64,000 bases of DNA from Octopus vulgaris (taxonomy: Eukaryota), in the NCBI GenBank assembly GCA_951406725.2, contig OX597831.1:32240001-32304000 (forward strand), in the 5' to 3' direction. Position numbers and translations under genes: made by a program. The notes beneath the pieces were generated by a model. That model saw only the letters and a program-made list of their open reading frames with translations, had not been told where the DNA came from and did not search any database. Below are positions 1,371 to 41,330 of the stretch, piece after piece (position 1 is the stretch's first letter; each line of letters starts with the position of its first letter).

Positions 1371-1572
1371 TAGTTAATCTAAACAAGAAAGCACAAAAAA
1401 ACACAACGCGAGGACGTGGAACAAATATAGTATTATTGGACGCTCAGGAAAGAAGGAAAGAAGGAGGGTTTAATGTTTTGAGCGGAGTTCTTCGTCGGAA
1501 ACATAGAAGAAGGAAAGATCCAGAGAAGGGAAGACAGAGGAAAAAAAAAAAAAAAATCGCCAACGGTACACA
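1371..1572 (-). mobile_element. short non-autonomous repeat with decayed hammerhead motif (HH family 1)
   Basis: Its reverse complement aligns with 1958-2150. The 3' end abuts (TA)n at ~1358-1372. Confidence 0.75.
1468..1502 (-). ncRNA. decayed minimal hammerhead ribozyme-like motif
   Basis: RC reads GTTT-CCGACGA-A-GAAC-TCC-GCTC-AAAAC-ATT-AAAC. The core is mutated. Stem I (GTTT/AAAC) covaries with ATTT/AAAT of the 2013 copy. Confidence 0.45.
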
Positions 1573-1957
1573 GACACACACAACCATATCCTATGTGCAT
1601 AGAAACTTTGATATATACATATATAATAATGTACATGCATATACACACACACAAACACACTCACTTACACCTATATGAAGTAGGAACCTGGTGATTGCAT
1701 AGGAAACTTCTTAAACACAAAGTCATGCATCCATACGTATCTACATCTATCTTTTTACCTTTCACTCATTGCAATCATTGGACTGCGGCCATGCTGGGGC
1801 ATCTTTCTGAAGGATTTAGACAAACAAATTGATCCCAGTACTAATTCAATTAAACTCTTTTGCCAAACAGCTAAGTTACAGGGACATAAACAAACCAACA
1901 CCAACTGCCAAGTATTGGTGGGTCACAAACACACACGTATTTCAATATGTGACCGCG

Positions 1958-2150
1958 TGTGTATCGTTGGTGATTTTCGTTCTCTGTCTTCCACTCTTTG
2001 GACTTTTTCTATATTTCTGATGAAGAGCCCCGCTCGAAACATGAAATCCTCTTTTCTTTCCTTTCCTTTCCTGAGCGTCCAATAACATAGTACTTGTACC
2101 ACGTCCTCGCGTTGTTGTCTTTGCTTGCTTGTTCTTGTTTGGATTGACTA
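1958..2150 (+). mobile_element. short non-autonomous repeat with hammerhead motif (HH family 1)
   Basis: Inverted homologue of 1371-1572. The 3' end runs into (TA)n at 2150-2194. Confidence 0.75.
2013..2047 (+). ncRNA. minimal type-I hammerhead ribozyme-like motif
   Basis: ATTT-CTGATGA-A-GAGC-CCC-GCTC-GAAAC-ATG-AAAT: canonical CUGAUGA and GAAA cores, 4-bp stem II, 4-bp stem I. The cleavage triplet is degenerate (AUG instead of NUH). Confidence 0.6.
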
Positions 2151-2156
2151 TATATA

Positions 2157-2198
<42 letters not shown>

Positions 2199-2926
2199 TG
2201 AGTCAGAGAAAGATGCACTCATATATCTGTCAGTAGAGTGGGTGGATTATCAAAATTTTATAATATCAAATATCAATCACGGCTGATCTTACCAAATCAC
2301 ATCAGCCGTGATGGATATTTAATACTATAAAATTCAGATAATAAATAAATAAATATAGATAGATACAGAAGTGTGTGTGTGTATGTGTGATGTGTTTCAA
2401 CACAGTTTCCAGCAGTCATATTCACTCACAAGGCATAGGCTGGCCCAAGGCCATAGTAGAAGACACTTACCCAAGGTGCCTTGAAGTAGGACTGAACCTA
2501 AGACCACAAGGCTCCAACGTGAGCTACTTAAGCGCTCACCCATGCCTCCACCTACATACATACATATGCACACATAGATATGTATGTATACACACACACA
2601 AGCACACATTCAGACAATTACTAGAAGTAGAAGCTCCACTCTGAGTATCTACTCATCTCCTAGGTCCTCCACTCCTCCGAGTTTCTGCATTTGTTATTGT
2701 TCTAGCTGACTGATAGGAAATTCAAACTGTGATGAATCTCTGCTGTAGACATGCTTCCCAGCCTGGATTCTCATTGGTCAATATTGTGGCCAGTTTGTGA
2801 CAGCAGGCTTTGTTTTTTGTTTTGTTTTGGTTTTTTGCGTGGGATTTCAGTTGCTTCTGCAGCTGCTACTGTGGTGACCAGCACCCTGACACTACTGCTA
2901 CTACCAATCTACAGACAAATAATACA

Positions 2927-2964
<38 letters not shown>

Positions 2965-3120
2965 ACTGTACAATTTAAACCTTAAATTGCGTGACAAATA
3001 ACCACTATTAAGAACTCCATATGTATTTCCGTTCCTGTATTGTAATTATATCTTTTGTAATGGAATCCAGGTTGGTAAAGTAGTGAACAAAACAAAACAC
3101 GAGACTGAGAGATTGTTTAT

Positions 3121-3190
<70 letters not shown>

Positions 3191-3193
<3 letters not shown>

Positions 3194-3283
3194 TAATAAT
3201 CAGCAGAAGTTACAGAGTGACTCAAGGACTAAGAGCTTTGGCAAACTCTTTAGTCACTTTATAACTTCTGCCAGTTATTAATA
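3191..3283. repeat. imperfect palindrome between (TA)n tracts (MITE-like)
   Basis: Arms TATTAATAA/TTATTAATA, GCAGAAGTTA/TAACTTCTGC and AGTGACT/AGTCACT. Confidence 0.6.
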
Positions 3284-3316
3284 AAATATATATATATATA
3301 TATATAGATGTATGTA

Positions 3317-3707
3317 GGCACAGGCATGGCCGTTTAGCAAGAAGCTTGCTACCCAACCACATGGTTCCAGGTTCAGTCCCACTGCTATAGCCTCGGACCG
3401 ACCAAAGCTTTGTGAGTGAATTTGGCAGATGGAAACTGAAAGAAGCCCGTCATGTGTGTGTGTGTATATATATATGCGCACGTGTGTGTGTGTGTGTGTG
3501 TGTATGTATTTGTGTGTCTGTGTTTGTCCCCCCACCATCGCTTGACAGTGGTGTGTTTACGTCCCTGTAACTTAGCAGTTTGGCAAAAGAGACTGATAAA
3601 ATAAGTACTAGGCTTACAAAGAATAAGTCCTGGGGTCAGTTTGTTCCAATAAAGGTGGCGCTCCAGCATGGCCACAGTGAAATGACTGAAACAAGTAAAA
3701 GAATAAA
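3317..3707 (+). mobile_element. SINE family A (tRNA-like head, internal (TG/TA)n, 3' tail ending GACTGAAACAAGTAAAAGA)
   Basis: Aligns along its length to the well-preserved copy at 31514-31912, with an internal deletion. Confidence 0.85.
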
Positions 3708-3712
3708 GGAAC

Positions 3713-3757
<45 letters not shown>

Positions 3758-39473: not shown

Positions 39474-39670
39474 ACGCCATGATAGATCGTTAGCTACTAC
39501 ACACATTTTTTTTTTCTCTCCTTGTTTTTTTTCTGTGTGTCTTTCTGTAGAAGACCGTAGGCTCGAAACGTAAAAGACTTTTTCTATTCCTGAGCACTAT
39601 ACTAATACATCTATTTGTTTGTACACCACCTGCCTTTGTCTTTTGTTTATTTTCGTAACCTTTCCCTTTT
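39474..39670 (+). mobile_element. short repeat with hammerhead motif (HH family 3, related to family 1)
   Basis: Homologous to RC of 41140-41330. The 3' end abuts (TA)n. Confidence 0.75.
39539..39578 (+). ncRNA. minimal hammerhead ribozyme-like motif (A6U core variant)
   Basis: GTCTTT-CTGTAGA-A-GACC-GTAG-GCTC-GAAAC-GTA-AAAGAC: 6-bp stem I, palindromic ACGT stem III, GUA triplet, one mismatch in stem II. Confidence 0.65.
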
Positions 39671-40321
39671 ATATATATATATATATATATTTACTACACT
39701 CACGGAGTGGACTACACTCACGGAGTGGTTGGCGTTAGGAAGGGCATCCAGCTGTAGAAACATTGCCAGATTAGACTGGAGCCTGGTGCAGCCTTCTGGC
39801 TTCCCAGAACCCCGGTCGAACCGTCCAACCCATGCTAGCATGGAGAACGGACGTTAAACGACGATGATGATATATATATATTTGTATGTATGTGTGATGG
39901 GCTTCTTTCAGTTTCCATCAACCAAATTCACTTAGAAGGCTTCAGTCAGCCTGAGGCTATACTAAAGAAACTTGTCTGAAGTACCATGCAGTGGGACAGA
40001 ACCTGAAACCATGTGGTTGGGAAGCAAGCTTCTTAACCACACAGCCATGCCTACACATATTGATGGAGAAGACAGCTTGGCCTGGGGTCAAGTATACAGA
40101 CACCAAACACAGAGTAAATAAAGAAACGCCTGGTCGTTGGTTCTATAATCCATACATTTATGTAAATACCAGCACAATATTGAGATGGGTTATTGGAATC
40201 TTGTAATTAATCATCCGCAGTGTTAATTCGGATAAATGAATGCTATGGTTAATTAAATGGGAATTCTGATCAATGAGAATATGCAATTAAGTGGAATCAC
40301 ATACATGTAACATATAAATAC

Positions 40322-40382
<61 letters not shown>

Positions 40383-40622
40383 ATGCATACATTATCATCG
40401 TCATCATTTGATGTCAGATGCTGGCATATGTTGGATGGTTTGACAGGAGCTGGTAAGGCTGGGGGAAGCACCAGGCTCCATTGTCTTGGAATGATTTCTA
40501 CAGCTGCATGCCCTTCCTAATATGCCAACCACTTTAGAGAGCGTTCTAGGTGTTTTTCATGTGGTACCAGCAGGATCACGAAGTAAGTTTCAAGACAAAA
40601 ACTGCTTCAGCTGCATGTATGC

Positions 40623-40657
<35 letters not shown>

Positions 40658-40669
40658 TATATACATACG

Positions 40670-40878
40670 CAGGGTGTGGCAGAAATATCTCCCACATTTT
40701 AAACTTTCCCTTATGTGTTGCTAATGAACTTATACAAGTGCCAATGATGCTTTCATTTAGCTAATGAACAAAAACTCTAACCCTTTGTTTAAAAAACAGT
40801 AAAATTAATTTTTCATAAAATGCTGTTTCTTTTTCCTTTTGTCAAACTTTTAAATGTGGGAGGTATTTCCGCCGCACC

Positions 40879-40881
<3 letters not shown>
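40670..40881. mobile_element. Tc1/mariner-type MITE
   Basis: ~30-bp TIRs CAGGGTGTGGCAGAAATATCTCCCACATTT...AAATGTGGGAGGTATTTCCGCCGCACCCTG, followed by TA on the right. Confidence 0.85.
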
Positions 40882-40921
<40 letters not shown>

Positions 40922-40924
<3 letters not shown>

Positions 40925-41123
40925 CGGAGATGTACTCGCATAGCAAGTAATTTGATCTGAGATCGTGTGCTGAAACGAAAACAATTGCAGCGTGGGAGGT
41001 GTTTATAAGCCATTTAAGAAACACACAAAAGCCGTTCGATTCACTCCAACATTTAAGTTTAATTTGTCAAAATATTTTCGTCGCTAAAATCTGCGACCTG
41101 TTCACTGACAAAGTCCGTGCTGC
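40922..41123 (-). mobile_element. short CpG-rich repeat between (TA)n tracts carrying a hammerhead motif (HH family 4)
   Basis: Bounded by (TA)n on both sides, with the motif at its 5' end. Only one copy in this window. Confidence 0.6.
41063..41112 (-). ncRNA. minimal hammerhead ribozyme-like motif with G3-C8 core swap
   Basis: RC reads TTTGTCA-GTGAACA-G-GTCGC-AGATTTTA-GCGAC-GAAAATATTT-TGACAAA: perfect 7-bp stem I, 5-bp stem II, palindromic AATATT stem III. Confidence 0.65.
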
Positions 41124-41139
41124 ATATATATATATATAT

Positions 41140-41328
41140 AGCTGAAATTTATAGAAAAACGGAAGATGAAGACAGGTGTTTGAATAATAAGAAAATGAAT
41201 TACTTTGACACTAGGAAAAAATGGAAAAGTCTTTTACGTTTCGAGCCTACGCTCTTCAACAGAAAGGAATAAGAGGAAATATACAGGGAGAGATTGAAAA
41301 AGATGTAGAGTTCGGCAGTCCAGCATGA

Positions 41329-41330
<2 letters not shown>
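41140..41330 (-). mobile_element. HH family 3 copy
   Basis: RC is homologous to 39474-39670. The 3' end abuts (TA)n at 41124-41141. Confidence 0.75.
41231..41266 (-). ncRNA. minimal hammerhead ribozyme-like motif (A6U core variant)
   Basis: RC reads CTTT-CTGTTGA-A-GAGC-GTAG-GCTC-GAAAC-GTA-AAAG. Confidence 0.65.

Follow-up and report, generated by a model that had tools for sequence, protein, structure and literature searches.

Hammerhead-bearing repeats in the window

The stretch analyzed here, hereafter the window, comprises 64,000 nucleotides of the Octopus vulgaris genome (assembly GCA_951406725.2, contig OX597831.1, positions 32,240,001 to 32,304,000 of the forward strand) and contains short repeats that carry minimal hammerhead ribozyme motifs. 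A first-pass annotation, made from the letters alone, had reported seven such motifs, and all seven were confirmed at the same coordinates and on the same strands, with the layout described there (Table 1). BLAST comparison inside the window sorted them into four repeat families, designated A to D. Because the two family B motifs sit on opposite arms of a single head-to-head insertion, the seven motifs represent six insertions rather than seven. A single inverted insertion was also considered for A1 and A2 and was rejected, given that the two copies belong to different subfamilies and are 385 bp apart. The family motif is intact in only two of the seven window copies, C2 and D, and decay is predicted to have left most of the hammerhead copies in the window unable to cut. 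At 40882-41330 the D copy lies at the (TA)n terminating C2, and similar clustering of hammerhead families in shared TA tracts was seen at loci L167 and L170.

Table 1. Positions of the hammerhead motifs and their host repeats within the 64-kb window
Feature	Position	Strand	Description
Hammerhead A1	1468..1502	-	decayed relative to the family majority: G12 lost, stem II mismatch, palindrome broken
Hammerhead A2	2013..2047	+	canonical core boxes; palindrome broken; N17 = G
Hammerhead B1	37818..37861	-	decayed: core and G12 altered
Hammerhead B2	38135..38177	+	core boxes and stem II preserved; damage in stem III and at the cut site
Hammerhead C1	39539..39578	+	U6 core, ACGU palindrome, GUA triplet, single stem II mismatch
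Hammerhead C2	41231..41266	-	U6 core, stems intact, ACGU palindrome, GUA triplet
Hammerhead D	41063..41112	-	G3-C8 core, 7-bp stem I, AAUAUU palindrome; family motif intact
Family A, pLTR fragment of the older subfamily (U17, U4C)	1371..1572	-	3' end at (TA)n
Family A, pLTR fragment of the G17 subfamily	1939..2150	+	5' end at the A of the initiator-like TCATTTC seen in long copies; 3' (TA)n
Family B inverted arm	37772..38012	-	comprises tRNA-like head, (AAT)n and hammerhead; tailless, with the short 3' end
tRNA-Arg-derived head of family B	37937..38009	-	A box 37995-38005, B box 37951-37961
Family B forward arm	38010..38261	+	includes the tail of ~29 nt; codes for the initial ~52 codons of the element ORF
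Family C pLTR fragment	39474..39669	+	3' end at (TA)n
Very young pLTR fragment of family D	40922..41125	-	from the 5' hot spot to the first ORF codons, at (TA)n
Older pLTR fragment of family C (ends approximate)	41142..41330	-	D at its 3' (TA)n
pLTR stands for pseudo-long terminal repeat and ORF for open reading frame.

A strict hammerhead descriptor gave three matches in the window and five in 400 kb of random genomic DNA, with none in any of 10 shuffles and none in the reversed sequence; the descriptor was built after the variant cores had been seen, which makes the shuffle and reversal control partly circular. An Rfam scan of the window returned no hammerhead among the 150 of 247 matches listed, and none reached the gathering score in four loci with good copies. 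In a random sample of forty 10-kb stretches taken at round coordinates, 26 insertions were found in 400 kb (C, 11; B, 8; A, 4; D, 3), or about one per 15 kb. The abundance claimed in the first-pass annotation was borne out, and the window, with six insertions in 64 kb, is ordinary in density rather than enriched. Each family yielded thousands of first-look candidates in the 2.8-Gb genome, and extrapolation from the 26 insertions in 400 kb gives ~180,000 insertions genome-wide. Family D is young, with 39 of 40 scored copies lying about one base from the window copy.

The repeats are linked to Penelope-like coding sequences

We conclude, with a probability of roughly 85%, that these repeats are short copies of the pLTRs of four protein-coding Penelope-like elements (PLEs), each pLTR bearing a minimal hammerhead, and that they were likely made by the elements' own reverse transcriptase (RT) starting within the 5' end of the RNA and copying to the transcription start. 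The connection to PLEs that had been suggested for these repeats was substantiated, with RT and GIY-YIG endonuclease (EN) sequence found upstream of the repeat for all four families. In contrast, the suggestion that they constitute separate non-autonomous retrozyme families was not supported: in all four families the repeat is the pLTR of an element with an ORF, and the copies are dispersed monomers or inverted pairs. RT sequences were recognized by their motifs, and Pfam gave no RT match.

For family D, all 12 long loci have the unit and most of them extend upstream into an RT/GIY-YIG frame. The long copies have a microsatellite-rich 3' region and, upstream of it, a frame with RT, a CX3CxxC linker and GIY-YIG. 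At locus L254, an inverted arm is followed by a pLTR, the body and a second pLTR, and the last codons of the unit continue into the ORF. The GIY-YIG domain of a 996-amino-acid (aa) frame at L253 scored above the Pfam cut-off, and among named proteins, the one most closely related to the D protein comes from Octopus vulgaris, at 58% identity. No fully intact D ORF was present among five long regions; the near full-length copy at L254:5562-7892 has a stop and frameshifts, whereas the 996-aa frame of L253 is open.

For family A, RT, EN and the A unit follow one another on one strand of L271 in decayed form, and EN fragments also occur in L270 and L272 and, inverted, in L276. Family C presents EN followed by the C unit in L277 and RT, EN and the C unit in L278, likewise decayed, and the EN fragments of both families are of Neptune type. 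A tblastn search with the D protein gave no match in 50 A and C loci, and longer regions were later needed. Two further PLE-like ORF fragments near A copies, L266:4049-4675 and L267:4381-5328, both on the minus strand, are unlinked to any of the families discussed here.

Family B begins with a tRNA-like head, and in L047 and L326 RT/EN sequence without a zinc-finger linker lies directly before it. Among the loci that contain the ORF end, 28 of 30 have the head following it. Additionally, a 52-codon frame running through the hammerhead and tail continues into a PLE-type N-terminus in L357, and one contig from an independent run bridges this junction of tail and N-terminus (X2 record 17). A search with the tail peptide found no long ORF among the best 150 of 36,537 candidates, and in a follow-up of the tail, ORF sequence was present upstream in one of 20 regions (L326). 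A genome search with the Pfam GIY-YIG model for a B partner returned other Neptune-type families instead. The idea that B is a stand-alone short interspersed element (SINE) mobilized by a PLE was dropped once RT/EN sequence was found upstream of the head and the ORF-end loci proved to be headed.

Several observations weigh against the pLTR assignment. The links for A and C rest on decayed copies, an A-type EN match was obtained in only 4 of 11 long A regions and the corresponding figure for C is 2 of 8. Moreover, it is for B and D that the first ORF codons were seen inside the pLTR.

3' ends, target sites and clade

The first-pass annotation had noted that most of the repeats end directly at (TA)n and had invoked microsatellite targeting. 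Both statements hold for three families and fail for B: (TA)n stands at the 3' end of 19 of 30 copies in A, 28 of 30 in C, 26 of 30 in D and 1 of 30 in B, with a background of 3.8%. Two alternative 3' ends were observed in B and in D, ~29 nt and ~57 nt apart, respectively. An inverted partner was present within the DNA examined for 37 of 50 B, 8 of 30 D, 2 of 30 A and 2 of 30 C copies, and the D partner is often ~57 nt shorter at its 3' end.

A C-terminal GIY-YIG, a CX2-5CxxC linker and a (TA)n insertion bias are described for Neptune/Nematis elements (PMC8557442) and are shared by A, C and D. The linker and the (TA)n bias are features of the Neptune clade, to which A and C, and less certainly D, would belong; the DKS and GAIG motifs of D differ from the DKG and GxxMG usual in Neptune/Nematis (PMC8557442). 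The (TA)n pattern fits the link between linker and targeting discussed in the same paper, and the Octopus rows seen in its supplement are Naiads, another clade. Family B fits Penelope/Poseidon, having no zinc-finger linker, the motifs DKG and GxxMG, and no microsatellite targeting.

A tRNA-derived head in family B

In the head of family B, which lies at the 5' end of the unit, an A box and a B box are spaced as in a tRNA. Compared with 30 genomic tRNA loci of seven tRNA types, it matched tRNA-Arg(TCG) best, with a z score of 12 relative to 200 shuffles. ARAGORN called no tRNA in 30 B loci, nor in the majority head at lowered thresholds, and Rfam made no tRNA call for the head. The sense strand of the B ORF contains no TTTT in 2,457 bases, versus 28 runs of four A, and synonymous-codon resampling gave an expectation of 3.2 to 3.6 (P = 0.028 and 0.021); these bases comprise one single-copy piece and three majority pieces, with a gap remaining between them. 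The ORFs of D and of two further families, E and F (see below), have 5, 9 and 6 TTTT runs, matching expectation. This one modest test hints that the ORF-bearing RNA of B is read through by RNA polymerase III (Pol III), and with a tRNA-derived promoter at its start the element is likely transcribed by this enzyme.

A more far-reaching proposal, to which we would give somewhat less than even odds, is that B is an autonomous element whose whole coding RNA is transcribed by Pol III from a captured tRNA-Arg promoter, with an ORF purged of TTTT and a ribozyme in its first codons, and that it sheds tens of thousands of SINE-like leaders. As part of the same proposal, the short repeats of all families would span the distance from transcription start to RT start, and the G3-C8, U6, C9 and G17 hammerhead cores described below would represent a fold that is kept though cleavage is weakened. 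No report of a tRNA-headed autonomous PLE was found in the literature; Repbase, Dfam and SINEBase, which lay outside the search, may hold the B head. Octopus tRNA-Arg SINEs are reported by Ohshima and Okada.

Alternatively, the short B copies could be a true SINE, self-transcribed from the internal tRNA promoter and re-mobilized in trans by a Poseidon-type protein. The spacing of the boxes and the tRNA-Arg match are consistent with this, as are the 26 of 40 B copies that start at -6 to +6 of the tRNA +1 and the count of first-look candidates, which is at least 36,537 for the B tail versus at least 2,139 for the ORF end, albeit with different queries. However, the head of a SINE would be absent from its autonomous partner, whereas here the same head occurs in 28 of 30 ORF-linked copies, so that masters alone suffice. 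Furthermore, the RNA required for insertion of the lizard element extends beyond the RT starts (PMC11167929), and the short B copies are without that part. We consider a true SINE unlikely.

Fixed 5' ends and a proposed mechanism

In each family, 5' ends accumulate at a preferred site. For D, 14 of 30 copies end within 3 nt of one position, one ends 12 nt further and 15 run on, and none of 15 incidental arms passes -5. For C, 22 of 30 copies end at -4 to +7, and for A, 12 of 18 incidental copies end at -21 to -7, several of them at the A of TCATTTC; B copies concentrate at the tRNA +1, as given above. The initiator pattern is YYANWYY, which the A, C and D sites match at 7, 6 and 6 of 7 positions, with backgrounds of 1% and 3.7%, and a TATA-like run lies ~30 nt upstream of the D hot spot. 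An extra 5' G, as expected from copying of a cap, was present in four of six informative D copies, which are too few. Published precedents exist for a pLTR with both TATA box and initiator (PMC3846280) and for an internal promoter (PMC2377424); no report of an initiator-like pile-up of short-copy 5' ends was found in the literature searched.

In the mechanism we propose, the endonuclease would nick the target and prime reverse transcription, as judged from the lizard Poseidon element in vitro, and the element's own RT, starting from within the 5' end of the RNA, would copy back to the transcription start. The fixed 5' ends would then be transcription starts, Pol II initiator-like for A, C and D and of the tRNA-type Pol III kind for B. 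Selection on master copies may maintain the hammerhead, which would act in dimeric form or assisted by protein and is probably unnecessary for making these insertions. In the lizard system, ribozyme mutants still inserted, and the type of tail seen in B is tied to two internal RT starts (PMC11167929).

Some of the data on 5' ends do not favor this mechanism. Only 7 of 32 incidental C arms and 2 of 14 incidental B arms start at the hot spot, and for many A copies the end fades into (TG)n or (TA)n at a point ~9 nt inside the initiator. The samples of the top 30 copies were picked by likeness to the window copies, so that copies cut inside the unit are under-sampled. In addition, the contigs come from runs only guessed to be RNA and display no molecule starts or ends, and an AG with a branch-point-like motif precedes both the D and the C hot spot, so that a splice acceptor would fit them too.

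It is accordingly conceivable that the fixed ends of D and C mark the splice acceptor of an intron in the 5' untranslated region (UTR) rather than a transcription start. In long D copies the branch-point-like motif is followed by a pyrimidine run and the AG at the hot spot, with a weaker version in C, and 5' UTR introns have been published for other PLEs (PMC2377424, PMC8557442). On the other hand, the A hot spot is without an AG yet matches the initiator fully, no short copy extends into an upstream exon, and the TATA-like run of D argues against a splice acceptor. A matching splice joint at the hot spot was also not found in contigs of four runs, although this is a weak test. On balance, we regard the intron explanation as improbable. 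A little less probable still is that the short copies are random 5' truncations of long transcripts, with pile-ups produced by microsatellite microhomology or RT stalling. The fusion of many A ends with (TG)n and the start of most incidental B and C arms inside the unit are what this would produce, but the tight stop of D copies at one site and the failure of any incidental D arm to reach beyond -5 are not.

Hammerhead anatomy and core variants

The copies behind the family majority motifs numbered 65 in A, 122 in B, 81 in C and 69 in D. All four are minimal type I hammerheads, as first proposed, with one extra purine, a G10.1-C11.1 pair, paired stems I and II and a palindromic stem III (ACGU in A to C, AAUAUU in D). 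While the shared layout was upheld, a CUGANGA core throughout was not: A and B have CUGAUGA as their majority core, C has CUGUNGA and D has GUGAACA. The canonical combination of C3UGANGA9, GAAA and NUH is present in B and in the older A subfamily. The departures from it are the compensated 3-8 pair of D (G3-C8), U6 in C and G17 in the A subfamily that resembles the window copy. Cleavage should be blocked or weakened by both G17 and U6. By the NUH rule, the G17 subfamily is predicted not to cleave, and it accounts for 26 of 31 window-like A copies and 16 of 21 long copies, compared to U17 in 11 of 13 incidental copies. This prevalence, together with copy ends that do not lie at the predicted cut site, leaves the earlier description of the repeats as ribozyme-processed unsupported.

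The most variable core position is N7 (37% in A, 22% in B and 43% in C), with most others at 0-7%, and this focus of the variation points to selection on master copies. U4 in family A, which varies at 22%, is an exception that counts against such selection.

Two additional hammerhead families were encountered. Family E (L258, L259, L260, L261, L264, L265) has the core CUGAUGC and an imperfect palindrome, and is a very young PLE with a 1,312-aa open frame containing an asparagine-rich insert; ~100 near-identical matches were found, with tandem and inverted copies. Family F (L291, L296, L307-L314) is young and Neptune-type, with 781-aa frames, the core UUGAUAA (U3-A8) and the palindrome ACAUGU, and in its pLTR, CRE-like and CCAAT-like motifs recur alongside a TATA box and what may be a splice donor. 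D-related copies at L246, L247 and L025, two of them ORF-linked, have an unpaired G3/G8 (GUGAAGA), i.e., an uncompensated core. Across the six families, the 3-8 pair is C-G, G-C or U-A, and stem III is perfectly palindromic in five of the six, a pattern that also favors selection on the motif. No report of natural G3-C8, U6, C9 or G17 hammerhead families was found in the literature, with Repbase, Dfam and several supplements outside the search.

Arrangement of copies

A second copy on the same strand within 1.5 kb was found for 1 of 30 A, 3 of 30 C and 0 of 30 D copies. Family B formed a tandem array in 1 of 50 loci (L038), a finding that counts against the pLTR assignment. In L038 (oriented 1380-2800), a tRNA head is followed by six head-to-tail hammerhead-bearing B tails, three as 188-bp units and then longer ones, possibly representing a nascent retrozyme-like satellite under a Pol III promoter. 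Retrozymes consist of head-to-tail hammerhead units, and with tandem arrays in 1 of 50 B loci the families do not have this organization. That the short units are ribozyme-cut, circularized and re-inserted by PLE proteins as non-autonomous retrozymes is thus very improbable, for although short non-coding copies far outnumber long ones, the L038 array has the expected form and a 2026 preprint derives vertebrate retrozymes from pLTRs (bioRxiv 10.64898/2026.07.22.740005), same-strand neighbors are rare, the ends are fixed at PLE landmarks and are neither at the cut site nor permuted, and all four units are colinear with ORF-bearing elements.

Other repeats in the window

The window also contains an abundant, clustered ~160-240-bp repeat with (TAA)n (6652-7975, 20097-21084 and 62258-62692, among others), at least two more SINE-like families (e.g., 3308-3744 and 24230-24430) and, at 12575-13363, a minisatellite with 34 copies of a 23-bp unit and 91% matches.

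Relation to known systems and implications

The core finding is known biology, i.e., minimal pLTR hammerheads (PMC4209133), in a new host. The metazoan PLE hammerheads described there have the same short helix I, extra base between 9 and 10.1, G10.1-C11.1 pair and palindromic stem III, and they occur mostly as single dispersed motifs, with some opposite-strand pairs and few in full elements, as observed here. A U3-A8 variant is reported in that work, whereas families with G3-C8, U6, C9 or G17 and octopus data were not found in the part available (PMC4209133). For giant squid, 235 hammerhead loci and Penelope elements have been reported (PMC6962438). No report of the octopus families themselves was found in the literature, with Repbase, Dfam and SINEBase outside the search.

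Family B is matched by the Poseidon element PAc of the green anole in its hammerhead overlapping the ORF start, its two internal RT starts that define the tail and its AT-rich rather than (TA)n targets (PMC11167929). It differs in that a tRNA-derived head or Pol III promoter was not found in the available account of PAc, while the engineered C3G/G8C change that gave partial rescue in PAc is the natural core of D (PMC11167929). Metazoan non-LTR retrozymes are likewise short, non-coding, pLTR-related hammerhead units, but they are tandem with mostly canonical hammerheads (PMC7229834; bioRxiv 10.64898/2026.07.22.740005), whereas tandem copies are exceptional here and the motifs are minimal. The SINE-like Sm-alpha of schistosomes has a Pol III promoter followed by a hammerhead (PMC6765202), and the TRIMp3 elements Cassandra and Helenus have a small-RNA promoter inside the terminal repeat (PMC10886601); both resemble B in these respects and, unlike B, are non-autonomous. 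Autonomous partners, it has been argued, must use Pol II (PMC10886601), and B carries its tRNA head in a coding element.

If the proposal for family B is correct, a tRNA promoter would be driving a coding retroelement, contrary to the customary division in which autonomous elements use Pol II and SINEs use Pol III. How translation proceeds from an uncapped RNA would then have to be explained, and one route for the birth of SINE-like families would be demonstrated. The genome also offers a natural mutant series for the role of the pLTR hammerhead, in which family D, with 39 near-identical copies, has the same C3G/G8C pair as the laboratory rescue, and this series allows a direct test of cleavage versus mobility. 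Finally, if the short repeats are copies from transcription start to RT start, the ~180,000 insertions would have one simple origin and would map the promoters of their masters.

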